A stretch of DNA of 64,000 nucleotides from Chloroflexota bacterium (GCA_021787395.1 JAJYLZ010000011.1:2196-66195); one strand, 5' to 3'. Shown: positions 42,221 through 53,882, numbered from the stretch's first letter. Translations and numbers: made by a program. The notes: generated by a model from the letters alone, not told the origin.

Positions 42221-43170
42221 GCGCGACGGGGCCGGCGTCCCTCGCGCCCCTGGTCGTCCTCGGCGGGCCCACCGCCACCGGCAAGACCGGGCTCGCCGTC
42301 GCGCTCGCGGAGCGGCTGCTCGACCGGGGCGTGCCGGCGGAGGTGGTCTCGGCCGACTCGCGCCAGGTGTACCGGGGCCTCGACATCGGCACCGCCAAGG
42401 CGACGCCCGAGGAGCGCGGGCGCGTCGTCCACCACGGCCTCGACCTCGTGGACCCCGACCAGCCGTACTCGGTGGCGGACTTCCGCGCCCACGCGCTGGG
42501 CGCGCTGGCGTCGCTCGGGGAACGGGGAGGGGTCGGCATCCTCGCTGGCGGGACCGGGTTCTGGCTGCGCGCCGTCGCGGCCGGCATCGACACCGACGCG
42601 CTGCCGTCGGACGGCGCGGTCCGGGCGGGCCTCGAGGCCGACCTCGGCCGGCTCGGCGTCGCGGCGCTCGCCGCCCGGCTCGGGGCCCTCGCTCCGGCCC
42701 TCGCCGCCCGCACCGACCTGCGCAACCCGCGGCGCGTCGTGCGGGCGCTCGAGATCGCGGAGCTGCAGGGCGATGCGCCGCTGCCCGCCCCGGTGGGCTA
42801 CCCGGCGCCGGTGCTCGGCCTCCAGCTCCGCGTCGAGCCCGGCGAGCACCGGCGGCGGATCCACGCCCGCGCCCGGGCCCAGTTCGACGCCGGCCTGGTG
42901 GACGAGGCGCGGGCCCTGCGCGAGCGCTGGGACCCGGCCCTCCCGTGCTTCACCGCGATCGGCTACCGGGAGAGCTGGGCGTACCTCGACGGCGCCTGCT
43001 CGCTCGAGGAGGCCGTCGCGCTCGACGCCCGGCGCAACGTCGCGTTCGCGAGGCGCCAGCAGACGTGGTTCCGCGCCGAGCGCACGCTCGAGGTCGTCGA
43101 CGCGACCCGAGACCCGCTGGCCGCGGCGTGGGCACGGCTCGACGCCTTCTCCCGGACGGCACGGCGCTGA
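42217..43170 (+). CDS. miaA: tRNA dimethylallyltransferase; the only plausible start is CTG
   Basis: VVLGGPTATGKTGLAVALA P-loop, SADSRQVYRGLDIGTAK and RR..RALE motifs. There is no ATG, GTG or TTG in frame between far upstream and the P-loop. CTG 42217 lies 5 nt after GGGAGG and overlaps the miaB stop (CTGA). Confidence 0.85.
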   Translation: MSATGPASLAPLVVLGGPTATGKTGLAVALAERLLDRGVPAEVVSADSRQVYRGLDIGTAKATPEERGRVVHHGLDLVDPDQPYSVADFRAHALGALASLGERGGVGILAGGTGFWLRAVAAGIDTDALPSDGAVRAGLEADLGRLGVAALAARLGALAPALAARTDLRNPRRVVRALEIAELQGDAPLPAPVGYPAPVLGLQLRVEPGEHRRRIHARARAQFDAGLVDEARALRERWDPALPCFTAIGYRESWAYLDGACSLEEAVALDARRNVAFARRQQTWFRAERTLEVVDATRDPLAAAWARLDAFSRTARR

Positions 43171-43249
43171 GCGGGGTCGCGGCAGCGGCGGCGGCGACCC
43201 GCCGAGCGCCGGCAGAGGGCCCGCGGGCGACCGGATATCCTTGCCCGCG

Positions 43250-44566
43250 ATGAGCCAGCGCGACGCGATCGACCTCGCACCCCCGGTCGAGAGGGCATTC
43301 CTCGTCGCCGTGGACACCGGCGACGACCCCGGCTGGACGGCCGAGGACAGCCTCAACGAGCTGGCCGCCCTGGCGGCCACGGCGGGCGCCGACGTCGTGG
43401 GCGCGGAGTGGCAGAACCGCCGCCACGTGGACCCCAACTGGTACGTGGGCAAGGGCAAGGCCGAGGAGCTGCTCCAGGCCAAGAGCGAGACCGGCTTCGA
43501 CATCCTGGTCGCCGACGACGAGCTGAGCCCGGTCCAGCAGAAGAGCCTGGAGTCGTTGCTCAACGTCAAGGTCATCGACCGCAGCCGGCTGATCCTCGAC
43601 ATCTTCGCCCTGCACGCCCAGACCCACGAGGGGCGGCTCCAGGTGGAGCTCGCCCAGCTCGAGTACCAGCTGCCGCGGCTGACCCGCCTCTGGACGCACC
43701 TCTCGCGCACGGGCGGCGGCATCGGCACCCGGGGGCCCGGCGAGTCCCAGCTCGAGACGGACCGCCGGCTCATCCGCGAGCGGATCAAGAAGATGAAGGA
43801 GCGGGTCGAGGACGTCCGCCGCCAGCGCCAGACCGCCGCCCGAGGCCGAGACCGGCGCCTGTACCCGACGGTCGCGATCGTCGGCTACACGAACGCCGGC
43901 AAGTCCACGCTCCTCAACGCCCTGGTCGGCAGCGAGGTGGCCCGGGCCGAGGACAAGCTGTTCGCGACGCTCGACCCCACGTCCCGCCAGGTCAAGCTGG
44001 GCGACGGCCAGGTCGTGATCGTCACCGACACGGTGGGGTTCATCCACAAGCTGCCGCACCAGCTGGTCGACGCGTTCCGCGCCACCCTCGAGGAGGTCAC
44101 CCGCGCCGACGTCCTGCTCGAGGTGGTGGACGCCGCGGACGACCACGCGCCCGAGCACCGCACGACCGTCCAGTCCGTGCTCGACGAGCTGGGGGCGGGC
44201 GACAAGCCGCGCCTCACCGCGTTCAACAAGGCGGACCTCCTGTACCCGGGCAGCGACGGCTCGCGACCCGCGCCGGCCGTGTCGGGCAGCGTGCTCGTGT
44301 CGGCCGCCACGGGCTTCGGGCTCGAGACCCTGCGCGGCGAGATCGCCGCCCTCCTCGCGTCGCTCTGGGAGGACGTGGACGTCGCCGTCCCGTACGCGGC
44401 CGGGGAGCTCCTGGCGCGGGTGCGCGAGCGGGGCACGGTGGACCTCGAGTACGGCGAGCGCGACGTGCGGGTGGTCGGCCGGATGGCCCCGGGCCTCGCC
44501 GGCGAGCTCCGGGCGGTCGCCGCGCGCTGGGCGGAGTCGCTCGCAGAGGGGAGCGCCGCCAGCTGA
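43250..44566 (+). CDS. hflX: GTPase HflX
   Basis: N-terminal HflX domain (DRSRLILDIFALHAQTHEGRLQVELAQLEY), then GYTNAGKST, DTVGF and NKAD. Confidence 0.9.
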   Translation: MSQRDAIDLAPPVERAFLVAVDTGDDPGWTAEDSLNELAALAATAGADVVGAEWQNRRHVDPNWYVGKGKAEELLQAKSETGFDILVADDELSPVQQKSLESLLNVKVIDRSRLILDIFALHAQTHEGRLQVELAQLEYQLPRLTRLWTHLSRTGGGIGTRGPGESQLETDRRLIRERIKKMKERVEDVRRQRQTAARGRDRRLYPTVAIVGYTNAGKSTLLNALVGSEVARAEDKLFATLDPTSRQVKLGDGQVVIVTDTVGFIHKLPHQLVDAFRATLEEVTRADVLLEVVDAADDHAPEHRTTVQSVLDELGAGDKPRLTAFNKADLLYPGSDGSRPAPAVSGSVLVSAATGFGLETLRGEIAALLASLWEDVDVAVPYAAGELLARVRERGTVDLEYGERDVRVVGRMAPGLAGELRAVAARWAESLAEGSAAS

Positions 44567-44697
44567 GCGCCGCCGCCAAGCCGGTCCGGCGCGGGGGCAC
44601 CGCCAGCCTGCCCGGGGGCCGCCACCTGGTCTGGACGGTGGCCGCGGGCGGCAGGGGCCGCCGCTGGCGCGCGGTGACCACCCACGGCGACGGCCGG

Positions 44698-45144
44698 ATG
44701 GAGTCGTCGCTGCTGCTCGAAGTGTCACCCCAGGGCCGGCTGCTCAAGCTCGAGCTGGCCACGGGCGAGGGCCTGCTGACGCTCCACCCCGACGGCGACC
44801 CGGTCAGGCTCCACGGGAACGTGGTGCGCGCGGCCGGCGTCGAGCACCTCGCGCTGTCCTGGTCCGAGGGCCATGTGCTGCTGGCCGGCGCGTCGCCGGT
44901 GACCGCGGCCGTCGCAGTCGAGGGCCCGGCCCGGCGGATCGGGGTGGGGGAGGGGACCAACCTGCCGGCGGTTGCGGTGGGGATCGACCTCCGGCCGCGG
45001 CCGGCGACCCTGCACGTCGCCCGCACCGCGGAGCGGCGCTGGCGGCTCCTCGTCGCCGACGGGCCCCCGTCGCTGCTGCTCGAGACCGACGCCGACGGCC
45101 TGCCGACCGCAGCCGACGGGCTGGCCTGGCCGCTGGAGGCGTAG
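44698..45144 (+). CDS. Hypothetical protein (start uncertain; may begin at CTG 44563 or GTG 44638)
   Basis: Open frame directly following hflX, with GC3-rich codons. I recognise no motif. Confidence 0.35.
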   Translation: MESSLLLEVSPQGRLLKLELATGEGLLTLHPDGDPVRLHGNVVRAAGVEHLALSWSEGHVLLAGASPVTAAVAVEGPARRIGVGEGTNLPAVAVGIDLRPRPATLHVARTAERRWRLLVADGPPSLLLETDADGLPTAADGLAWPLEA

Positions 45145-45225
45145 TCCCGCCCTGCGCCGCGCGCGGCGGCCCACGGTGCCCCGCGGATGACTGCACCGCG
45201 CCACGGCCCGGAACACTCGGACCGG

Positions 45226-45253
45226 TTGACATGCGCCGTCTGACATCTACGCT
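45226..45253 (+). promoter_or_regulatory. Near-consensus sigma70-type promoter (TTGACA-N16-TACGCT) of the 45.3-kb cassette
   Basis: TTGACA at 45226-45231 and TACGCT at 45248-45253. TGACAT is repeated at 45227 and 45241. It lies about 47 nt upstream of an SD (GGAGGGG) and ATG 45300. Confidence 0.45.
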
Positions 45254-45299
45254 GGTGCACGTTCGTTAGGGGCCGATCGGCACGGTGGAGGGGTGACCT

Positions 45300-46217
45300 A
45301 TGGACCATGATGAGGCGGGCATGGGCGGCATGGGCGAAATGCCCGGCATGGGCAGCGGCGAGCCCGGCGGGTCCGGGATGCACGACATGCCCGGCATGGC
45401 CGACATGCAGATGGGCCCCGGGCCCAACGCCGACCCGGACCAGCACGCGTTCGTCATGCTGGGGACCGAGACCATGTTCCTGTGGCACCTCCCGATGCTC
45501 CGCGTGGACATGGACATGCACAAGTACGAGTTCGTCCTCAAGGCGCATCTCGACCCCGCCGCCAAGCGGGCATGGCTCGAGGACCGGTCGCGCCACGGCG
45601 GCGAGGTCTACTTCCTGGGCAACTCCGACAAGGACCTGATGACGATCGCGAGCCTCGCGATCGGGGCGAAGACGTCCTTCCAGGCGTCGGTCTGGGCCGG
45701 CATCCCGCCCAAGCACCGCTACTGCTCGTGGCCCTGGGAGCACCAGGAGCCGATCGTCGAGGCCGCGACGGTCACCATCGAGCGCGTGGTGGCCTACCGC
45801 CACTTCGACGTCCAGGAGAACTACCCGGCCTGCCCGTCGTACCTGCTGTTCGGCGAGGGGAACGAGGCGTACCTGGCCCACCGCCTGACACGCCAGCCCG
45901 ACTACGACGAGGTCGTGATCCTCCACGGGCGGCCGAGCTGGCTGCCCGAGGAGCTGCTCCAGGCGGGCGTGCCGGTGAGCTTCCCCGGGCTGGCGGCGAC
46001 GCCGACGCCCTGCTCCACCCAGCTCCTCAACAAGGTGTACACGGTCGAGTACGGCGGCGAGCCGGGCGCGGCCTACCCGGTGACGATCAAGCAGAACCTC
46101 TGGTTCAACACCAAGATCCCCAACGACGTCGATCCGTGCGAGCCCGACGAGGGCCCGTGCCCGCCCCCGCCGAGCTCCGCGCCGGCCACGGCCTCCGCCG
46201 CGGGTTCCCACAGGTGA
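45300..46217 (+). CDS. Hypothetical protein with a Met/His-rich N-terminus and no domain I recognise
   Basis: 305 aa with good SD spacing. The N-terminus is MDHDEAGMGGMGEMPGMGSGEPGGSGMHDMPGMADMQMG, followed by HAFVMLGTETMFLWHLPMLRVDMDMHKYEFVL... and six Cys. There is no signal peptide or TM helix. The stop overlaps the next gene's start (GTGA). Confidence 0.7.
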   Translation: MDHDEAGMGGMGEMPGMGSGEPGGSGMHDMPGMADMQMGPGPNADPDQHAFVMLGTETMFLWHLPMLRVDMDMHKYEFVLKAHLDPAAKRAWLEDRSRHGGEVYFLGNSDKDLMTIASLAIGAKTSFQASVWAGIPPKHRYCSWPWEHQEPIVEAATVTIERVVAYRHFDVQENYPACPSYLLFGEGNEAYLAHRLTRQPDYDEVVILHGRPSWLPEELLQAGVPVSFPGLAATPTPCSTQLLNKVYTVEYGGEPGAAYPVTIKQNLWFNTKIPNDVDPCEPDEGPCPPPPSSAPATASAAGSHR

Positions 46218-48463
46218 CCGCCGGGCACCCGGTCGAACACCTCCTCGCGTCCTTCGAGCGGCGCTACCGGCAGGACGACACGCTCCGCCTCGAGCAGGCA
46301 GGGTCGGATTCACTGGGCTCCTGGTTCCTGGGGCCGAAGGGCGAGAACGCGGACCTCTTCAGGCAGCTGGCCATCAGGGCCATCGACGCCCACCTCACGG
46401 ACCGCCGCGAGTTCCGCCGCGACGATCCGCCCTGGGTGACCCGCGAGGTCAAGGACAGCGCGGCCTACAAGGCCGGCGTCTCGCTGCTCGAGTCGGAGCT
46501 CGACCGCCTGCTCGCTCGGCTGCACGGCTCGGTGCCCTTCTACAGCTACCGCTACCAGGGCCACATGCTCTGGGACGTCACCCTGCCCTCGCTGCTGGGG
46601 TACCTGGCGGCGCTCCTCTACAACCAGAACAACGTGGCGGCCGAGGCGTCGCCGGTCACCACCCTGCTCGAGATGGAGGTGGGGCGCGACCTGTGCCGGA
46701 TGCTGGGGTACGCGGTGCCGCCGCTGTCCGAGGTCGACGCTCCGCCCGCGCCGGGCGGACCGGCCATCCCCTGGGGCCACATCACCGCGGACGGGAGCCT
46801 CGCCAACATCGAGTCGATATGGGCGATGCGCAACGCCCGGTACTACCCGGTGGCGCTGGCCGCCGCCGTCGCGGCGGAGTCGTCGCTCGCGGCCGCGAGG
46901 GGCGTCGAGGTGGCACTGCCCCAGGGCGGCACGAGGCGGCTCCTCGACCTCGACGCCTGGGGCCAGCTGAACCTGAGCCTCGACGAGACCGTCGCGCTGC
47001 CCGGTCGCATCGCGGCGGCAGCCGGGATCGGCGCGGACGCGCTCGCCGCGATCATCGGGGGCTACTCGCTCCAGGGCCTGGGCATGGCCGAGTTCGCGAG
47101 CCGGCACCTGCCGGGCGTGCCCGGCGGCGTCGTGATCGGGCCCGGGACGATGCACTACTCGTGGCCGAAGGGGGCGACCCTGCTCGGGATCGGGGCCGCC
47201 AACCTCATCCCCGTCCCGGTCGACCTCGACGCCCGCCAGCGCGTCGACGCGCTGCGCGAGCAGCTGGACCGGTGCCGCACGGCCAGGCGGCCCGTGATCC
47301 AGGTCGTCGCGGTCATGGGGACGACCGAGGAGAGCGCAATCGACCCCCTCGAGGACATCCTCGCCGCCCGCGAGGACTGCCGCCGGGCGGGCATGGACTT
47401 CCCGGTGACCGTCGACGCGGCGTGGGGCGGCTACTTCGCCTCGCTCCTGCGCACGTCGGGCACCGCACCCGTGGACGGCGACCCGCGGGACGTGCGCCAG
47501 TACACGCCGGAGCTCGCCATGAGCGGCTACGTCGAGCGCCAGTACCGGGTGCTCGGCAACGCCGACGCCATCACCATCGACCCCCACAAGGCGGGCTACA
47601 TCCCGTACCCGGCGGGCGGGCTCTGCTACCGCAACGCCGACGTCCGCAACCTCGTGTCGCTCAAGGCGCCCGTCGTGTACCACGACGGGGTCGACCCCAC
47701 CGTGGGCGTCTACGGGATCGAGGGCTCGAAGCCGGGCGCGGCGGCCGCCGCCACCTACCTGAGCCACCGGGTGATCAGCACCGACCAGACCGGCTACGGC
47801 AAGATCCTGGGCAAGTCCCTGTTCAACAGCAAGCGGCTGTACTCGGCGATCGTCACCATGGCCGCGGACGCCGATCCGTTCATCGTGGTGCCGCTGCAGC
47901 GGATCCCCGCCGAGCGGATGGGCGAGTCGCCGGCGCGGATCCGCGCCCAGCTCGACCGGATCCGGACCGACGTCGTCGAGCGGACCAACGACGAGCTGCT
48001 GGCCGACCGGAGCGTGATGGGCCTGTTCCGCGAACTCGGCTCCGACCTCAACATCGTGGCCTACGCCTTCAACTTCAAGTCGGCCGGCGAGGTCAACCGC
48101 GCGCTGGACAAGGCGAACGCGCTCAACAACGCGGTCTTCACGCAGCTCAGCCTCCAGGCCGACCCCGGCCGGATCCCTGCCACGCCGATGTTCGTGACGT
48201 CGTCCCAGTTCGATCCGGCCAGCTACGGGCACGAGCTCGTCGACGACTTCAAGCGGCGCCTGGGCGTGGTCGGCGACGCCGACGCGCCGGTGCAGTTCGT
48301 CATCTCGACCACCATGGACCCCTGGCTGACCGACACGGCCGGGGGCAGCTTCATCCCGACCCTGATCGCGGCGCTGCGGAGCGCCGTGCTCAAGGCGCTT
48401 CCAGCCGTCCAGGCGCCGTCCCCTGACGCCCCAGCCAGCGCGACCAGAAAGGGCCGACCGTGA
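46214..48463 (+). CDS. Large (749 aa) group II pyridoxal-dependent decarboxylase-like protein
   Basis: LLYNQNNVAAEASPVTT.LE, HITADGSLANI, VMGTTEE.AIDP, TVDAAWGGY and DPHKAGYIPYPAG (PLP-lysine motif). It is much longer than typical ~480-aa family members because of an N-terminal region and internal insertions. Confidence 0.85.
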   Translation: MTAGHPVEHLLASFERRYRQDDTLRLEQAGSDSLGSWFLGPKGENADLFRQLAIRAIDAHLTDRREFRRDDPPWVTREVKDSAAYKAGVSLLESELDRLLARLHGSVPFYSYRYQGHMLWDVTLPSLLGYLAALLYNQNNVAAEASPVTTLLEMEVGRDLCRMLGYAVPPLSEVDAPPAPGGPAIPWGHITADGSLANIESIWAMRNARYYPVALAAAVAAESSLAAARGVEVALPQGGTRRLLDLDAWGQLNLSLDETVALPGRIAAAAGIGADALAAIIGGYSLQGLGMAEFASRHLPGVPGGVVIGPGTMHYSWPKGATLLGIGAANLIPVPVDLDARQRVDALREQLDRCRTARRPVIQVVAVMGTTEESAIDPLEDILAAREDCRRAGMDFPVTVDAAWGGYFASLLRTSGTAPVDGDPRDVRQYTPELAMSGYVERQYRVLGNADAITIDPHKAGYIPYPAGGLCYRNADVRNLVSLKAPVVYHDGVDPTVGVYGIEGSKPGAAAAATYLSHRVISTDQTGYGKILGKSLFNSKRLYSAIVTMAADADPFIVVPLQRIPAERMGESPARIRAQLDRIRTDVVERTNDELLADRSVMGLFRELGSDLNIVAYAFNFKSAGEVNRALDKANALNNAVFTQLSLQADPGRIPATPMFVTSSQFDPASYGHELVDDFKRRLGVVGDADAPVQFVISTTMDPWLTDTAGGSFIPTLIAALRSAVLKALPAVQAPSPDAPASATRKGRP

Positions 48464-49254
48464 GCAACGAGGAGCTCTGGTACACGATCTTCGCCAAGGG
48501 GCATCCGGCGCTGGTCAAGCAGCACCAGCGACACCTCAGGATGCCCTCGCCCCCCAGGTGCAAGCTCTGCCTCGTGCCGTTCGCAGGGGTAGGCGGGTTC
48601 ATCATGGGCTTCCGGGGCAAGCGCCCCTCGAACCGCAACCCGCGGTTCTGCAGCGCCTGCGACCACTTCATCCGCCAGTTCCCGGGCGGCGCCGAGGTCG
48701 AGCTCTCCCTGGTCTTCGCCGACGTGCGCGGGTCCACGACGCTGGCCGAGCGGGTGAGCGCGTCGGAGTTCAGCCGGATGATGCACCGGTTCTACGCCGC
48801 CGCCACGGCGCAGCTCGTCGCGACGGACGGCTTCATCATCGATGTGGTGGGCGACGAGGTCGTGGGCGTGTACCCGCCCGGGTTCTCCGGCCCCCGCCAC
48901 GCGGCCCTCGCCATCGAGGCCGCCCAGCGCCTCCTCGCCCTCGACTCGGCCGAGTGGGCCGACATGCCGTTCGGCGTGGGCGTCCACACCGGCGTGGTCC
49001 ACATCGGCACCGTGTCGGGAGCCGAGGAGGGCATCCAGGACGTCCGCGCGATCGGCGACAACGTCAATGTCGCGGCGCGGCTGTCCTCCCAGGCCGGCCC
49101 GGGCGAGGCCCTCGTGAGCGATGCGGCGTGGACGGCGGCCGGGGCGCCCGACGACGGCCTCGAGCGCCGCACGCTCGCGCTCAAGGGCCGCACGGAGCCG
49201 ATCTCGGTCCTGGTGCTCACCTCCGGCTACCACCGAGCGGCCGCCCCGGCCTGA
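48460..49254 (+). CDS. Class III adenylate/guanylate cyclase with an N-terminal CxxC...CxxC zinc ribbon
   Basis: RCKLC...FCSAC, then cyclase homology domain motifs LVFADVRGST, VVGDEVVGVY, GVHTGVV and IGDNVNVAARL. GTG 48460 overlaps the decarboxylase stop (GTGA). Confidence 0.85.
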   Translation: MSNEELWYTIFAKGHPALVKQHQRHLRMPSPPRCKLCLVPFAGVGGFIMGFRGKRPSNRNPRFCSACDHFIRQFPGGAEVELSLVFADVRGSTTLAERVSASEFSRMMHRFYAAATAQLVATDGFIIDVVGDEVVGVYPPGFSGPRHAALAIEAAQRLLALDSAEWADMPFGVGVHTGVVHIGTVSGAEEGIQDVRAIGDNVNVAARLSSQAGPGEALVSDAAWTAAGAPDDGLERRTLALKGRTEPISVLVLTSGYHRAAAPA

Positions 49255-49354
49255 CCCCGCCTCGCGGCGTCGGGGCAGGGGAGGGGGCCGCCACGCCCGG
49301 TTGACCGGAGCGTCCTCTCCGGGAGGCGTTTCGCCTGCCAGAGGGGAGTCGACC

Positions 49355-50152
49355 GTGCCGTTCACCGTTCGCGCCGCCGCCGGCCCGCTGCTCCTGTGCG
49401 GCGCGGCGCTGCTGCCCGCCGCACGGCCGGTGGCTGCCCTCGCGCTGCTCGTCGCCTGGGTGGTCCAGCTCGCACGGGGACGGGCCGAGGCGGTCGCCCT
49501 GGCGGCGACCCTGCCGGTCGGCCTCATCCTGCCGTGGCCCTGGATCCTCGGGGTGGACGCGCCGATCGGCGTCCCGGCGTGCACGGCCCCGCTGTCGGCC
49601 ATCGTCGTCCGCCGGCTCGCCCTGGCAGCGTTCGGCCTGACCGCGGTCGCCACGGTGGCGGGCCTCCACGGACTGGACAGGGGAGAGCTCGGCCTGCGGG
49701 GGCCCGCGCCGCGGGAGGCCGCCGGCGCCGCGGCCGCCGCGGGCGTCGTCGCGCTGGGCGGCCTCGTCGCCGGACCCTGGCTGGCCAGCCCGTTCTTCGG
49801 CGAGCTCGACTTCCCGCGCCCGGCCGCGGCGCTGCTGCCGGCGCTCCTCTTCGGCGTCGCGAACGGGGTGCTCGAGGAGGTGGCCTATCGCGGGGCGATG
49901 CAGGGCCTGCTGGCACACGCGATGCCGCTGTCCTGGGCCATCGGCATCCAGGGGCTCGTCTTCGGCATCGTCCACGCCGGTCCCGAGGTGCTCGCGCTCC
50001 TGCCCGTGCACGTCGCCCTCATGGGCGTGATCGGCATCGCCGGCGGCGTGGCCCGGGCGCGGCTGGGGTCCCTGTGGCTGCCGATCGGCGTCCACGTCGG
50101 CGCCGACATCGCGCTCTATGTCGGACTGGCCTGCCGGGCTGCGGCCGCCTGA
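49355..50152 (+). CDS. CPBP-family intramembrane glutamic endopeptidase (CAAX protease/Abi-like)
   Basis: Multi-TM protein with EEVAYRG (EExxxR), FGIVH (FxxxH) and a distal HVG histidine. GTG 49355 lies 6 nt after GAGGGGAG. Confidence 0.8.
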   Translation: MPFTVRAAAGPLLLCGAALLPAARPVAALALLVAWVVQLARGRAEAVALAATLPVGLILPWPWILGVDAPIGVPACTAPLSAIVVRRLALAAFGLTAVATVAGLHGLDRGELGLRGPAPREAAGAAAAAGVVALGGLVAGPWLASPFFGELDFPRPAAALLPALLFGVANGVLEEVAYRGAMQGLLAHAMPLSWAIGIQGLVFGIVHAGPEVLALLPVHVALMGVIGIAGGVARARLGSLWLPIGVHVGADIALYVGLACRAAAA

Positions 50153-50232
50153 CGCGAGGACAACAGGGTGCCGCCGCCGGACGGCCGGCATGCCGCCAAC
50201 GCTGGAGAAGCGGTCCGGGCGGTCCGCCGGGC

Positions 50233-50442
50233 TCAGGCGGCCAGCACGAGGGCCGCCGCGCGGCGCAGCACGTGCAGCCTGCGGCGCAGGCCGGGCCGTG
50301 GCGCGCGCCGAGCGCCGTCGGGGCTCCCCTCGAGCGTGCGCGCGCCGGCCTCGAGGGAGTCGGGCCGTCCGCCCGTACGGCTCCACACGGTGGTCTCGTC
50401 CTGCTCGGTCAGGTAGTACTCGTCGAGCGTGATCGCGCCCAT
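50233..50442 (-). CDS. Small hypothetical protein (69 aa; acidic N-terminus, Arg-rich C-terminus)
   Basis: ATG preceded by AAGGGA with a 7-nt spacer. Sequence MGAITLDEYYLTEQDETTVWSRTGG... with GC3-rich codons. No recognisable family; it could be a shadow ORF. Confidence 0.3.
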   Translation of the reverse strand: MGAITLDEYYLTEQDETTVWSRTGGRPDSLEAGARTLEGSPDGARRAPRPGLRRRLHVLRRAAALVLAA

Positions 50443-50671
50443 CTCCGCATCCCTTCTGCAGTAGATGACGCGCGGCGTCGCCGGCTGTTCCGTCCGAGAC
50501 CACGCGAGCCGTGCCGCTCACGGCTGCGCACGTGCACTGCTGCGCCGGCCGGTCGGCCGTCCGGGTTCGACATCACTTCCGATAAGGCAAGTTATGTTAT
50601 CTCTGTCTGTACGGAGCGCTACGGAACGGTCGGGGCTGGTCGGCGGCGCGGATCCACAGTAAGGTTCACGG

Positions 50672-51736
50672 GTGTCCGGACTCGTCCCCGTCCCGGGCGG
50701 CGGGAATCCGCCCCTGCCGCGATCCGACGTCCCCGCCATCGAGCTCGACGGGCTCGTCAAGCGCTACCGCAAGGCCGACCGCAACGCGGTGGACGGGATC
50801 AGCCTCACGGTCGCCCGGGGGGAGTTCTTCGCGCTCCTGGGGCCGAACGGAGCGGGCAAGACCACGACGCTGTCGATCCTGACGACCACGCTCGCGCCCA
50901 CGGGCGGCCGCGCCCGCATCGACGGGCTCGACGTGGTGGCGGACGCGGCCGCGGTGCGGCAGCGGGTGGGCATCATCTTCCAGCGCCCGAGCCTCGACCG
51001 GAATCTGACCGGCGAGGAGAACGTTCGGTTCCACGCGGTCCTCTACGGGCTGTACCCGTATGCGCCCGCCTTCCGGATGATGGCCGCCGCGTACCGCGAG
51101 CAGGTGGCCGCCTGGTCCGAGCTGCTCGGCCTGGGCGCCGACGTGTTCAAGCCCGTGCGCACGTACTCGGGCGGCATGCTGCGCAAGCTGGAGATCGTCA
51201 GGAGCCTCGTCCACCGTCCGCGCGTGCTGTTCCTCGACGAGCCCACGACCGGGCTCGACGCTCCCAGCCGGCGGGCGCTCTGGGCCTACCTGCGCGACGT
51301 CCGCGCCGCCGACGGCACCACGATCGTCCTCACCTCCCACTACCTCGAGGAGGCCGAGCAGGCCGACCGGATCTGCGTGGTGGACGCGGGCCGCGTGGTC
51401 GCCACCGGCTCCCCCGCCGAGCTCACCGCGGCGCTCGCCGGCGAGTCGCTGCTGGTGGACGCCGCCGACCGCGCCGCGCTGCGCGCCGAGCTGGCGGGCA
51501 TGGGCCTGGCGCCGGCGGGGGACGGTCCCTTCCGGCTGGCCGTCCGGACCGCCGACGTGCACCGGGTGCTCCGGGCGGTCGCCACTCCCCTCTCGATGGT
51601 CCGGACCGACGCCCCGTCGCTCGAGGACGCCTACCTCCAGATCGTGAGCCGCGCCGAGCTGGACACCGAGGTCATGGGGCGGCCGGCGCCTGCGTCGGGT
51701 GCCGGGCTGCCCACGCCGGAGGCTGGCGATGGCTGA
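50672..51736 (+). CDS. ABC transporter ATP-binding protein (ABC-2/DrrA-like exporter subunit)
   Basis: GPNGAGKTT Walker A, YSGGMLRKLEI signature, LFLDEPTTGLD Walker B, and a C-terminal extension. Confidence 0.9.
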   Translation: MSGLVPVPGGGNPPLPRSDVPAIELDGLVKRYRKADRNAVDGISLTVARGEFFALLGPNGAGKTTTLSILTTTLAPTGGRARIDGLDVVADAAAVRQRVGIIFQRPSLDRNLTGEENVRFHAVLYGLYPYAPAFRMMAAAYREQVAAWSELLGLGADVFKPVRTYSGGMLRKLEIVRSLVHRPRVLFLDEPTTGLDAPSRRALWAYLRDVRAADGTTIVLTSHYLEEAEQADRICVVDAGRVVATGSPAELTAALAGESLLVDAADRAALRAELAGMGLAPAGDGPFRLAVRTADVHRVLRAVATPLSMVRTDAPSLEDAYLQIVSRAELDTEVMGRPAPASGAGLPTPEAGDG

Positions 51737-52577
51737 GGCGGCGGCGCCGCACGAGTTGACGGCCCGCCGGAAGGGCGCTCCCCTGCCCCGCCGGTGGCAG
51801 GCCGAGCTGTCGGCGGTCGCGGTCATCGCCCACCGGGACTTCGTGAAACTGCTGCGGGACCGCCTGCGGCTGCTGTCCGAGCTCGCCTTCCCGCTGGTCC
51901 TGGTGCTCCTCCTGGGCCCGGCCCTGCAGTCGGGCTTCGGCGCCCCGGGGGGCGTCAGCCTGACCGGGTTCGTGTTCAGCGGCGTCCTCGCCCAGACGAT
52001 CTGGCAGTCGGCCGTGCTGGGGCTGGTGTCGCTCGTGGCGGACCGCGAGGAGGACTTCAGCCAGGAGGTCTTCGTGTCGCCCGCGTCGCGCTACTCGATC
52101 GTGGCGGGCAAGATCATCGGCGAGTCGCTGGTCGCCCTGCCGACGGGCCTCGGGATCGTGGTCGTCGGGCTGCTGATCGGCGTCCCGCTCCCGCTGCCGG
52201 TGCTGGTGGCCCTGGTGCCCACCTCGCTGTTCGTGGCCCTCAACGGCGGGGCATTCGGGCTGCTGCTGCTGTCGCGGGTGGGGAGCCAGCGGGCGGCGAA
52301 CCAGATCTTCCCGTTCCTGCTGCTTCCGCAGTACTTCCTGGCTGGGGTGTTCAACCCGATCCACGGGCTGCCGCTGCCGCTCGCCGTCCTGTCCGCCCTG
52401 TCGCCGCTGCGCTACGCGGTGGAGCTGACGCGGAACGCCATCTACGGGCTCCAGCCCGGCGTGCCGGCGCCCGAGACGACGGCCGCGCCGATCAACGCCG
52501 CGGTGCTCGGGGCGTCGCTGCTCGCGTTCCTCGTGGCCGGCACGTTCCTGTTCGTCCGGGCCGAGCGGAACCGCTGA
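51729..52577 (+). CDS. ABC-2 type transporter permease
   Basis: Six predicted TM helices. ATG 51729 overlaps the end of the ATPase gene by 8 nt. Confidence 0.85.
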   Translation: MAEAAAPHELTARRKGAPLPRRWQAELSAVAVIAHRDFVKLLRDRLRLLSELAFPLVLVLLLGPALQSGFGAPGGVSLTGFVFSGVLAQTIWQSAVLGLVSLVADREEDFSQEVFVSPASRYSIVAGKIIGESLVALPTGLGIVVVGLLIGVPLPLPVLVALVPTSLFVALNGGAFGLLLLSRVGSQRAANQIFPFLLLPQYFLAGVFNPIHGLPLPLAVLSALSPLRYAVELTRNAIYGLQPGVPAPETTAAPINAAVLGASLLAFLVAGTFLFVRAERNR

Positions 52578-52602: not shown

Positions 52603-53634
52603 TCACGCCGCCGGCCGGCGCGCCATCACCAGCGAGCCCCACAGCTCGCCCGGGACCTCGATCGGCAGCGGCGGCTCGAAGCCGGCCTCGCGCAGCCAGC
52701 GCTCCCAGTCGTCGCGGGTGTCCAGGCCGCCGCCGTCGGTGGCGAGGAGCATCTGGAGCGCGAACAGCGCGGCCTCGGGCGGCCCGGCGCGGTCCGGGTC
52801 GAGCACCGCGTCGCGCAGGACGATCCAGCCGCCGGGCGCGAGCGCGCCGAACACCTTGCGGATCAGCGCCGGGTGGCCCTCCCGGGGCTCGCCGTTGAGG
52901 ACCCCGAACACGAGCGCGACGTCGTAGCCGCTGCCCAGGGGCTCGCGCTGGAAGTCGCCGGCGACCATGCGCACGCGCCCGCTCCAGCCCGCGTCGGCGA
53001 TCAGCCGGGCCCCGACCGGCACCACCCTCGGCAGGTCGAACACGTCGGCGCGCAGGCGCGGATAGCGCTCGGCCAGCGCCATGCTGTAGGCGCCGTGGCA
53101 GCCGCCGACGTCGATGAGCCGCAGGTCGCGCTCCCGGGGCAGCTCGATGCTGGCGGCGACCGCGGGGGCCAGCGGGAGGGCCGTGGCGTAGATCCCGCGC
53201 ACGAACCGCTCGATCCAGTCCGGCGGCGCCTCGTCGCGGGCGTTCTCGGGCGGACGCCGGCCCGTCCGCACGGCGTCCGCCAGGTGGCCCCAGCGCCGGT
53301 AGTGCGCGCTCTGGAGCTCGATCCCGCCGACGATCGCCCCCGGCACGCCGCGGACCAGCAGCTCCCCTGCCCCGGGCGCCATCCGAAAGCGGCCCTCGGC
53401 CTTGTGCAGCAGTCCGAGCGCGGTCGCCGCGTTCAGCAGCAGCTCCACGGCCCGCGCGTCGGCCGCGACCTCGGCGGCCACCTCCGCCGAGGTCGCCGGG
53501 CCAGCCGCGACGGCGTCGAACACGCCCAGCTCGACGCAGGCGAACAGGACCTGCGCCCCGCGGAAGCCCGTCGCGAGGTCCTGCACCCGCCGTCGGACGG
53601 GCAGGGTGTCGTCCCCGGTGTCGTCCCCGCTCAC
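52603..53634 (-). CDS. Class I SAM-dependent O-methyltransferase (family 2, with an N-terminal dimerisation/winged-helix domain)
   Basis: LIDVGGCHG (SAM motif I), DVFDLP, GDF and YDVALVFGVL motifs. GTG 53634 overlaps the stop of the upstream Cys-rich gene (GTGA). Confidence 0.85.
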   Translation of the reverse strand: MSGDDTGDDTLPVRRRVQDLATGFRGAQVLFACVELGVFDAVAAGPATSAEVAAEVAADARAVELLLNAATALGLLHKAEGRFRMAPGAGELLVRGVPGAIVGGIELQSAHYRRWGHLADAVRTGRRPPENARDEAPPDWIERFVRGIYATALPLAPAVAASIELPRERDLRLIDVGGCHGAYSMALAERYPRLRADVFDLPRVVPVGARLIADAGWSGRVRMVAGDFQREPLGSGYDVALVFGVLNGEPREGHPALIRKVFGALAPGGWIVLRDAVLDPDRAGPPEAALFALQMLLATDGGGLDTRDDWERWLREAGFEPPLPIEVPGELWGSLVMARRPAA

Positions 53635-53882
53635 GCCTCGTCGGCCGGGCCGAGGCCCAGCGCCCGCAGCTCGGCGGCCACCTCGCGCAGGCAGGCCGGG
53701 CACAGGCAGTCCCGGTACGGCCCCACGCCCTCCGGCAGCGGCACCGGCAGGCGGAAGGCCTCGGCGGAGCACCAGCACAGCCCGTCGCCCAGGTTGCGGC
53801 ACCCGAAGACGGCGCCGCAGCGCTCGCAGCGCGTCTGGCGGCTGGCGAGCGCCGGGTCCCATGACCCCGTCGGCTCGGTCAT
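53631..53882 (-). CDS. Cysteine-rich CWC-family small protein
   Basis: 83 aa: CERCGAVFGC...GLCWCS...CLCPAC, the spacing characteristic of the Cys_rich_CWC family. ATG 53882 lies 9 nt after AAGGAGG. Confidence 0.7.
   Translation of the reverse strand: MTEPTGSWDPALASRQTRCERCGAVFGCRNLGDGLCWCSAEAFRLPVPLPEGVGPYRDCLCPACLREVAAELRALGLGPADEA

Follow-up and report, generated by a model that had tools for sequence, protein, structure and literature searches.

A conserved trio of adjacent genes is described here from a 64,000-nucleotide (nt) stretch of a Chloroflexota bacterium (GCA_021787395.1 JAJYLZ010000011.1:2196-66195), referred to below as the window; positions are those of the window unless another contig is named. 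The region studied, 45226-50152, holds four open reading frames (ORFs), all on the plus strand and encoding proteins of 305 (ORF1), 749 (ORF2), 264 (ORF3) and 265 (ORF4) residues. A preliminary description of the region, which had placed these frames correctly, treated all four genes as one cassette; the unit that we recover is the trio ORF1-ORF2-ORF3, and ORF4 has no counterpart in any related locus. ORF2 is a pyridoxal 5'-phosphate (PLP)-dependent decarboxylase whose closest solved relative is PcncAAAD, the noncanonical calcium-activatable aromatic L-amino-acid decarboxylase (ncAAAD) of Psilocybe cubensis (PDB 6EBN; PMC13062060). Profile and fold comparisons identify ORF1 as a free-standing homologue of the appendage domain of that enzyme, and ORF3 belongs to a clade of zinc-ribbon class III cyclases dedicated to the module. 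We consider it fairly probable that the operon encodes a split bacterial ncAAAD together with a cyclase that evolved to work with it, ORF1 acting as the shared hub.

The decarboxylase and its putative accessory subunit

The assignment of ORF2 to the PLP decarboxylase fold, made originally from a DPHK motif, is borne out by the position of that motif (residues 456-459) and by the match to PF00282 (Table 1). Residues 32-717 of ORF2 align with residues 21-697 of 6EBN with an E value of 3.9e-136, the N-terminal extension included, so that the similarity covers ~690 residues of the catalytic N-terminal domain of PcncAAAD with the PLP motifs conserved. The shared motifs are HYSWPK, DAAWGGYFA, TIDPHKAGY (with a single conservative Ser/Thr change) and YGIEGSKPGAAA. 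This full-length alignment explains the size of ORF2, which had been called oversized, as well as residues 1-130, which had been singled out for separate study and which align with the N-terminal part of 6EBN; ORF2 is an ordinary member of the tyrosine decarboxylase (TyrDC)/ncAAAD type. Its next relatives are tyrosine decarboxylases of the Enterococcus/Lactobacillus type (TIGR03811; 5HSI and 7CWX), which match at E values of ~1e-75 to PDB chains and resemble ORF2 in having a group II PLP fold with extensions at both termini. However, the TIGR03811 score of ORF2 is 299 bits against a cutoff of 905, which makes it related but not an equivalog, no TyrP-type antiporter is encoded nearby, and the trio adds a β-barrel accessory subunit and a cyclase partner that the tyrosine decarboxylases lack. 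The family of ~740-residue decarboxylases is large, with at least 1945 matches at E ≤ 1e-30, and its cultured holders include Paenibacillus, Chitinophaga, Dyella, Sulfitobacter, Shimia and Actinokineospora. By homology, ORF2 would be expected to act on aromatic L-amino acids; PcncAAAD accepts Phe, Tyr, Trp and kynurenine (PMC13062060).

Two observations concern the reading frame of the decarboxylase. In public annotation ORF2 begins at 46157 instead of the GTG at 46214, giving 768 residues and a 61-nt overlap with ORF1 (46157-46217); we favour the 749-residue version because homologues align from its first residue. In two other loci (L001, 7850-9989, and L002, 1787-3926) the decarboxylase is broken into ORFs of 228 and 446 residues in different frames. 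The break is identical in these contigs, which come from two independent samples, and may be a real frameshift or mark a pseudogene.

ORF1 has no match in Pfam, NCBIfam or PADLOC, and no domain had been recognized in it before. An initial homology search returned 21 relatives, and the AlphaFold2 model derived from the alignment of these sequences consists predominantly of β-strands, with a mean predicted local distance difference test (pLDDT) score of 77 and values mostly above 90 in the core. When this model was compared with the PDB by Foldseek, the only significant matches were chains A and B of 6EBN (E values of 5e-10 and 1.3e-9, probability 1.0), with alignments of 264-282 columns; every other PDB match had an E value of 0.02 or higher. 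Since ORF2 already spans residues 21-697 of 6EBN, ORF1 would be expected to match the remainder. The ORF1 family profile, run against 177,635 PDB sequences, matched 6EBN alone (E = 0.02), at residues 717-770 and 824-856, essentially inside the C-terminal appendage domain (residues 718-1013; PMC13062060). The weak direct match is bridged by natural fusions, as the same profile finds the C-termini of decarboxylase fusion proteins with E values of 1.6e-80 (P0148), 2.9e-23 (P0246) and 1.5e-21 (P0267). Fold match, fusion intermediates and gene context together identify ORF1 as a homologue of the appendage domain, and ORF1 and ORF2 as the two parts of a putative split PcncAAAD-type enzyme.

The fungal enzyme offers a precedent for such a design. 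PcncAAAD without its appendage domain loses all activity, and separate co-expression of the domain partially rescues it, so that a two-subunit enzyme is plausible; the domain also contributes to two calcium/sodium sites (PMC13062060). The preliminary description had allowed that its proposal would fail if ORF1 and the decarboxylase matched families of assigned, unrelated function. Both do match known families, but the assigned function is related, which strengthens the case that the genes work together.

Despite this likeness, the bacterial proteins differ from PcncAAAD in several respects. The parts are encoded by separate, translationally coupled genes, with the accessory gene first in this genome. 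The calcium ligands of sites A and B are only partly conserved: on the appendage side, Asp825 of PcncAAAD corresponds to the invariant Asp170 of ORF1 (Ala in Paenibacillus) and Glu824 to Phe169, and Asp971 could not be placed in the alignment; on the catalytic side, Ser632 corresponds to Ser646 and Glu638 to Gly652 of ORF2. Other points of difference are the Met/His-rich tail of ORF1, its WPW loop and its pair of conserved Cys residues. The trio also includes a dedicated cyclase, whereas PMC13062060 names no such partner for the fungal enzyme.

The tail accounts for the earlier characterization of ORF1 as Met/His-rich, with ten Met and three His among the first 50 residues. Most aligned members of the family have a His- or Met-rich stretch just before the conserved QHAFVMLG strand, and such a stretch is also present where the ORF1 domain is fused to decarboxylase, cyclase, M28 peptidase or cupredoxins. 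Its composition suggests that the tail may bind metal. The fusions to cupredoxin (plastocyanin/azurin-like) domains or M28 peptidase were seen in metagenomic proteins (P0232, P0253 and P0203); a His-rich stretch directly precedes the domain in each, one cupredoxin fusion has a lipoprotein-type signal, and the P0232 cluster contains a protein from a Kofleriaceae metagenome-assembled genome.

A profile search of 1.84 billion representative proteins gave 992 representatives of the ORF1 family at E ≤ 0.001 and 455 at E ≤ 1e-10. The members checked in cultured bacteria are all labelled 'hypothetical protein' and have no Pfam model. ORF1 proteins that are paired with a decarboxylase in the absence of a cyclase likewise match nothing in Pfam, which leaves a stray UniRef label, 'DUF4261', unsupported.

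Conservation of the trio and the dedicated cyclase clade

When species-representative genomes were scanned with the alignment of ORF1, 14 loci emerged, in Gaiella, Solirubrobacterales, Eremiobacterota/Vulcanimicrobiota, Gemmatimonadales, one gammaproteobacterium and one alphaproteobacterium; three more from protein look-ups brought the number to 17. ORF1, decarboxylase and cyclase are adjacent on one strand in 15 of these by tblastn, the other two being a locus cut by a contig end (L012) and a degenerate one (L017). The hosts are soil bacteria and represent at least five phyla. The genes are arranged in one of two ways: ORF1-decarboxylase-cyclase in the window, Gaiella, Solirubrobacterales, Gemmatimonadales and the gammaproteobacterium, and decarboxylase-ORF1-cyclase in Eremiobacterota and others. 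When the ORFs of 25 linked loci were clustered, ORF1, the decarboxylase and the cyclase were the only shared families. The gene-neighbourhood comparison that the preliminary description had called for is thus positive for the trio, and its view that the tightly coupled genes form a shared unit agrees with this co-conservation. The coupling itself takes the form of GTGA stop/start overlaps, both present as reported, at 46214-46217 (ORF1/ORF2) and 48460-48463 (ORF2/ORF3); overlaps of 4 nt recur in L001 (ORF1/cyclase) and L105 (ORF1/decarboxylase). A fixed chromosomal site next to hflX/miaA was considered and rejected, as the other loci do not share it.

The association of ORF1 with the decarboxylase extends beyond the trio. 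The two genes are same-strand neighbours in over 20 loci, and three cultured species, Paenibacillus woosongensis, Chitinophaga filiformis and Dyella flagellata, carry a homologue of ORF1 (E values of 1e-70 to 1e-76 against the ORF1 hidden Markov model) directly upstream of the decarboxylase with no cyclase. These pairs mark ORF1 and the decarboxylase as the core, to which the cyclase was added in one lineage of the module.

Two natural fusions connect all three proteins. One contig (L103) encodes a 1125-residue fusion of the decarboxylase, a His/Cys-rich linker and the ORF1 domain, followed by the cyclase; another (L102) encodes a 724-residue decarboxylase followed by a 562-residue ORF1-cyclase fusion. 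ORF1 is the partner common to both, which suggests a role as shared hub.

Besides its class III cyclase domain, ORF3 contains a helical region and, at the N-terminus, a zinc ribbon with four Cys residues. Its AlphaFold2 model (mean pLDDT of 91.5) is matched best in Foldseek by Spirulina CyaC (1WC1; E = 1.4e-15, target-normalized TM score of 0.84) and the cyanobacterial guanylyl cyclase Cya2 (2W01), class IIIb enzymes whose catalytic fold it shares with target-normalized TM scores of 0.79-0.84. Like them, it retains the metal-binding Asp pair, the transition-state Asn and Arg, and Lys242. Unlike them, it has the ribbon and the helical region, is genetically tied to ORF1 and a decarboxylase, and has Asp128 at the position of the specificity Lys and Arg196 at that of the Thr, a combination that is neither the canonical adenylyl pair (Lys with Asp/Thr) nor the classical guanylyl pair. 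The two positions, which lie four residues ahead of the second metal-binding Asp and seven ahead of the Asn, were located by what we take to be the corresponding numbering in CyaC and Rv1625c. Hence the earlier call of an active class III cyclase holds for the motifs FADVRGST, GDE and NVAARL and for both metal-binding Asp residues, the Asn and the Arg, but not for the base-specifying positions, which are noncanonical.

Zinc-ribbon cyclases are abundant (4345 matches at E ≤ 1e-20; at least 572 metagenome loci), but of the 54 metagenome loci whose upstream sequence reached 400 bp or more, only six had ORF1 or the decarboxylase. The idea that the whole cyclase family travels with the decarboxylase was therefore rejected. 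A neighbour-joining tree of 95 zinc-ribbon cyclases accounts for the low figure, because only one clade is linked: all 22 linked cyclases fall in it, together with four of unknown flanks and no unlinked member, and all 42 unlinked cyclases lie outside. Within the linked clade, two sub-clades correspond to the two gene orders.

The linked clade is also distinct in its residues. Metal-binding Asp88 and Asp132 are present in 22/22 linked cyclases and in 42/42 free-standing sisters, Asn203 in 19/22 and 42/42, Arg207 in 21/22 and 41/42, and Lys242 in 20/22 and 40/42. At the first specificity position, the sisters have Lys or Arg throughout (42/42), whereas the linked clade has Asp in 14 members, Gly in three and Ser, Tyr, Glu, Ala and Lys in one each; at the second, Thr or Ser (42/42) is replaced by Arg in 12 of the 22, the others being variable and none having Thr. 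Conversely, His15 of a GHP motif is invariant in the linked clade (22/22) and is found in three sisters, which are otherwise variable there. The four ribbon Cys residues, kept in 22/22 linked cyclases, would be expected to bind zinc. As the catalytic residues are kept and the Lys/Thr pair is lost, the linked cyclase is probably catalytic yet not a canonical adenylyl cyclase.

These changes have a counterpart in ORF1. Where the cyclase has lost the Lys/Thr pair and gained the invariant His15, the linked ORF1 has gained the WPW-containing inserted loop and two invariant Cys residues (Cys238 and Cys280). All three features are common to the cyclase-linked ORF1 proteins, both natural fusions included. 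They are missing from two low-GC decarboxylase fusions and from ORF1 of Paenibacillus, Chitinophaga and Dyella, where no cyclase is adjacent.

Several loci contain further genes beside the module. The degenerate locus L017 was considered as a variant with ORF1 and cyclase and without decarboxylase, which is absent within 8 kb; this was rejected, since its ORF1 is truncated to 188 residues, and the locus is read as a decayed module. There, a 730-residue HTH-STAND NTPase regulator with a C-terminal cyclic nucleoside monophosphate (cNMP)-binding domain (E = 4e-14) is encoded immediately upstream and abuts the truncated ORF1 and a linked-clade cyclase (L017, 5812-9454), and is the sole cNMP receptor observed beside the module. 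In three unrelated genomes, a Peptidase_S9 (BD-FAE) protein of 640-690 residues is encoded after the decarboxylase module (L003, 5685-7613; L020, 8255-10228; L106, 7253-9325), which hints that the substrate amino acid may derive from peptides. The last of these, from Shimia isoporae (L106, 5001-11359), resembles the trio in encoding the same decarboxylase family near a class III cyclase, in the order decarboxylase, Peptidase_S9 (with a 4-nt overlap), FIST sensor protein and cyclase. It differs in that ORF1 is absent and the cyclase, which follows the FIST gene, matches only the catalytic domain of the zinc-ribbon profile and lacks the ribbon region.

The locus and its neighbours

The coordinates of the features are collected in Table 1. 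A near-consensus promoter and a strong Shine-Dalgarno sequence had been reported ahead of ORF1. The latter is present as described. For the promoter, the -35 element TTGACA (45226-45231) is perfect, but the -10 element TACGCT (45248-45253) matches TATAAT at three of six positions, and a sigma-70 scan of 44900-50700 returned no sites, this one included. TACGCT satisfies only the looser pattern TAnnnT, which we take to be that of actinobacterial promoters.

Table 1. Features of the region in window coordinates
Feature	Position	Strand	Basis
Promoter-like site, TTGACA-N16-TACGCT	45226..45253	+	Direct sequence reading
Shine-Dalgarno sequence GGAGG ahead of ORF1	45287..45291	+	Sequence reading; 8 nt 5' of ATG at 45300
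ORF1, putative double-β-barrel accessory subunit, homologue of the PcncAAAD C-terminal appendage domain, 305 aa	45300..46217	+	Fold and profile
Met/His-rich low-complexity tail of ORF1, aa 1-47	45300..45440	+	Composition of the first 50 residues
WPW loop of ORF1, aa 144-146	45729..45737	+	Invariant in the 21-sequence alignment (A1)
Cys238 of ORF1	46011-46013	+	Specific to cyclase-linked proteins; invariant in A1
Cys280 of ORF1, in DPC motif	46131-46139	+	Specific to cyclase-linked proteins; invariant in A1
ORF2, PLP-dependent catalytic subunit, TyrDC/ncAAAD-type group II decarboxylase, 749 aa	46214..48463	+	PF00282, E = 2.3e-13
PLP-binding Lys459 of ORF2	47588-47590	+	DPHK motif
ORF3, N-terminal four-Cys zinc ribbon and class III cyclase domain, 264 aa	48460..49254	+	PF00211, E = 1.5e-10
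Zinc ribbon of ORF3, CKLC (aa 34-37) and CSAC (aa 64-67)	48559..48660	+	Four Cys invariant in A2/A3
DVVGDE of ORF3, with Asp128 and metal-binding Asp132	48841..48858	+	Residue counts in linked clade
Arg196 of ORF3, second specificity position	49045-49047	+	Residue counts in linked clade
NVAARL of ORF3, with Asn203 and Arg207	49066-49083	+	Motif reading
ORF4, CPBP/Rce1-like membrane protease, 265 aa	49355..50152	+	PF02517, E = 6.6e-15; motifs EEVAYR and FGIVH

ORF4 is a CPBP protease, as first described, with both the EExxxR and FxxxH motifs, and follows the cyclase stop codon by 100 nt on the same strand. No homologue was found by tblastn in the 17 genome loci or in 80 metagenome loci, and ORF4 joined no shared cluster among the ORFs of the 25 linked loci. 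It was accordingly dropped as a fourth component, and from these comparisons it appears to be a neighbour private to this genome. It may still be co-transcribed with the trio here, since the ORF3-ORF4 spacer contains no terminator-like site in a terminator scan of the region and its predicted RNA folding is unremarkable (z = -0.9). An Rfam scan of 43000-52000 found no RNA families.

The genes rny, ymdB, miaB, miaA and hflX lie 5' of the trio, and an ABC transporter and other genes lie 3'. Between hflX and ORF1 is a 168-residue ORF (44638-45144, plus strand) that has no Pfam match and is not conserved with the module elsewhere. The source is a high-GC metagenome-assembled genome, and the G+C content of the trio is 70-73%, compared with 75-79% in the flanks (45000-49000); together with a chromosomal neighbourhood that differs in every other genome, this fits a horizontally mobile accessory module. 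Further downstream, an O-methyltransferase (Dimerisation and Methyltransf_2 domains; 52603-53882, minus strand) follows an 83-residue Cys_rich_CWC protein, the coordinates of the two overlapping. Another PLP decarboxylase (511 residues, PF00282; 56829-58364, minus strand) is divergent to a class III aminotransferase starting at ~58460 (plus strand), and this pair looks like a diaminobutyrate-type pathway unrelated to the trio.

Proposed linkage of amine formation to cyclic-nucleotide synthesis

If the operon is a split ncAAAD with a cyclase adapted to it, ORF2 would be the PLP-dependent catalytic subunit, forming an amine from an aromatic or related amino acid. ORF1 would be the accessory subunit in the role of the PcncAAAD appendage domain, which in the fungal enzyme binds calcium and is needed for activity. 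ORF1 would contact both ORF2 and ORF3 as a shared, probably metal-responsive, activator or scaffold. ORF3 would synthesize a cyclic nucleotide, probably not canonical cAMP, and a common cue would switch the two activities, or the one would be coupled to the other. An amine-forming step tied to cyclic-nucleotide signalling, which the preliminary description had offered as one possibility, is in our judgement the best reading of the sequences.

Several points weigh against this reading. The direct sequence match between ORF1 and 6EBN is marginal (E = 0.02), and the L102 and L103 fusions are each known from one metagenomic contig. The partial conservation of the calcium ligands suggests that the calcium control of PcncAAAD may not be carried over. 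The decarboxylase family also occurs without ORF1, in Actinokineospora and Shimia, and so does not need it in every case. The trio itself encodes no receptor for a cyclic nucleotide, and the variable base-specifying positions of the cyclase could equally reflect relaxed selection and a non-catalytic role. The bacterial trio is known here from sequence and predicted structure alone.

A bolder version of the proposal, which we regard as improbable but worth stating, is that the three proteins form one physical complex, that the cyclase, having lost purine recognition, makes a noncanonical cyclic nucleotide or a nucleotide-arylalkylamine conjugate, and that the β-barrel family is a widespread, unrecognized metal-sensing regulator, which occurs also in fusions to peptidases and cupredoxins. 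If true, this would amount to a new bacterial signal or metabolite that couples aromatic amino-acid decarboxylation directly to nucleotide chemistry.

Another explanation would be that the genes are co-regulated neighbours, which share a promoter and are inherited together while the cyclase acts independently, the linked clade being the outcome of vertical co-inheritance. The interaction of the trio proteins is itself a deduction, and the clade structure could follow host-genome ancestry, both of which leave room for this explanation. However, Actinomycetota, Eremiobacterota, Gemmatimonadota and Gamma- and Alphaproteobacteria hold the module always as a unit in differing neighbourhoods, ORF1 is fused to the cyclase in one case and to the decarboxylase in another, and clade-specific residue changes have occurred in ORF1 and the cyclase alike. 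We therefore think it unlikely.

We rate as equally unlikely a biosynthetic coupling, in which the cyclase-like enzyme would have ceased to form a simple cyclic purine nucleotide and would use another nucleotide, or the amine product as nucleophile, to make an unusual nucleotide or nucleotide-amine within a decarboxylase-ORF1-cyclase complex. The loss of both purine-specifying residues with retention of the metal-binding and transition-state residues would suit such a function, as would the fusions, which make the three proteins appear tethered, and the absence of a receptor gene from the module. The cyclases of the Pycsar system (PycC) demonstrate that the fold can turn to pyrimidine substrates through pocket residues (PMC11224242). 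Against this, the pocket residues of the linked clade are variable rather than newly fixed, and the 25 linked loci share no genes for tailoring, export or resistance. Moreover, attack by an amine is, to our knowledge, without precedent among class III cyclases.

Slightly less probable still is flux sensing, by which the cyclase would read decarboxylase activity from the CO2/bicarbonate released at the active site of that enzyme and report it as a cyclic-nucleotide signal. The structures nearest to ORF3 are Spirulina CyaC entries, some of them with bicarbonate (1WC5 and 1WC6), and the sister clades hold Lys at the first and Thr/Ser at the second specificity position, a Lys and Thr pair being the usual one in class IIIb cyclases that respond to bicarbonate; adjacency of decarboxylase and cyclase is also maintained, and fusions to ORF1 connect them. 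Yet it is precisely the Lys/Thr pair that the linked clade has lost. The substrate Lys is implicated in the CO2 activation of class III cyclases, and its loss argues against a CO2/bicarbonate mechanism. Flux sensing would also leave unexplained why the cyclase is fused to ORF1 and not to the decarboxylase.

An anti-phage system resembling Pycsar, with the cyclase as sensor and the decarboxylase and ORF1 as toxic effector, is very improbable: ORF3 gives weak matches to the PADLOC PycC models (best E = 1.2e-12, 45.7 bits), resembles PycC as a small stand-alone class III cyclase with an altered base pocket and, as in some PycC, a zinc motif (PMC11224242), and the module is scattered over phyla in positions that differ between genomes, suggesting horizontal transfer, but PycC models score ORF3 no higher than the generic Pfam cyclase model does, none of the 50 structural matches listed is described as PycC (they are canonical adenylyl and guanylyl cyclases instead), neither Pfam nor clustering of the 25 linked loci reveals an effector of the TIR, transmembrane or cNMP-binding type in the module, the zinc motif of clade D PycC is a C-terminal Cys3His rather than an N-terminal four-Cys ribbon (PMC11224242), the flanks here are housekeeping genes and not a defence island, and ORF1-decarboxylase pairs exist without any cyclase. 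ORF3 was accordingly rejected as a Pycsar cyclase.

We thus retain the split decarboxylase with its own cyclase as the preferred reading. Part of it is already known, namely the decarboxylase family and the structural domain that ORF1 matches. The preliminary description knew of no characterized pathway of this composition, and the searchable literature, a scope that excludes the original PcncAAAD study (reportedly that of Torrens-Spence et al., 2018), likewise yields no account of the gene combination or of the bacterial split homologues, nor of ORF1 as a free-standing bacterial protein, of how large its family is or of its association with a cyclase clade of its own. The appendage domain of PcncAAAD was recently termed 'unique' and suggested to have evolved within the fungal lineage (PMC13062060, 2026). 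Our results place it in a large bacterial family, and since members of this family are normally separate subunits beside a decarboxylase, the fungal enzyme may have arisen by gene fusion. Paenibacillus woosongensis, Chitinophaga filiformis and Dyella flagellata provide cultured hosts in which the accessory subunit can be studied, and the results should be of use for annotating the ORF1 family and for engineering PcncAAAD-type enzymes for arylalkylamine production. In the lineage represented here, the ORF1-decarboxylase pair has recruited its own clade of cyclases with an altered base pocket, so that the formation of a biogenic amine would be linked to cyclic-nucleotide signalling genetically and, probably, physically.

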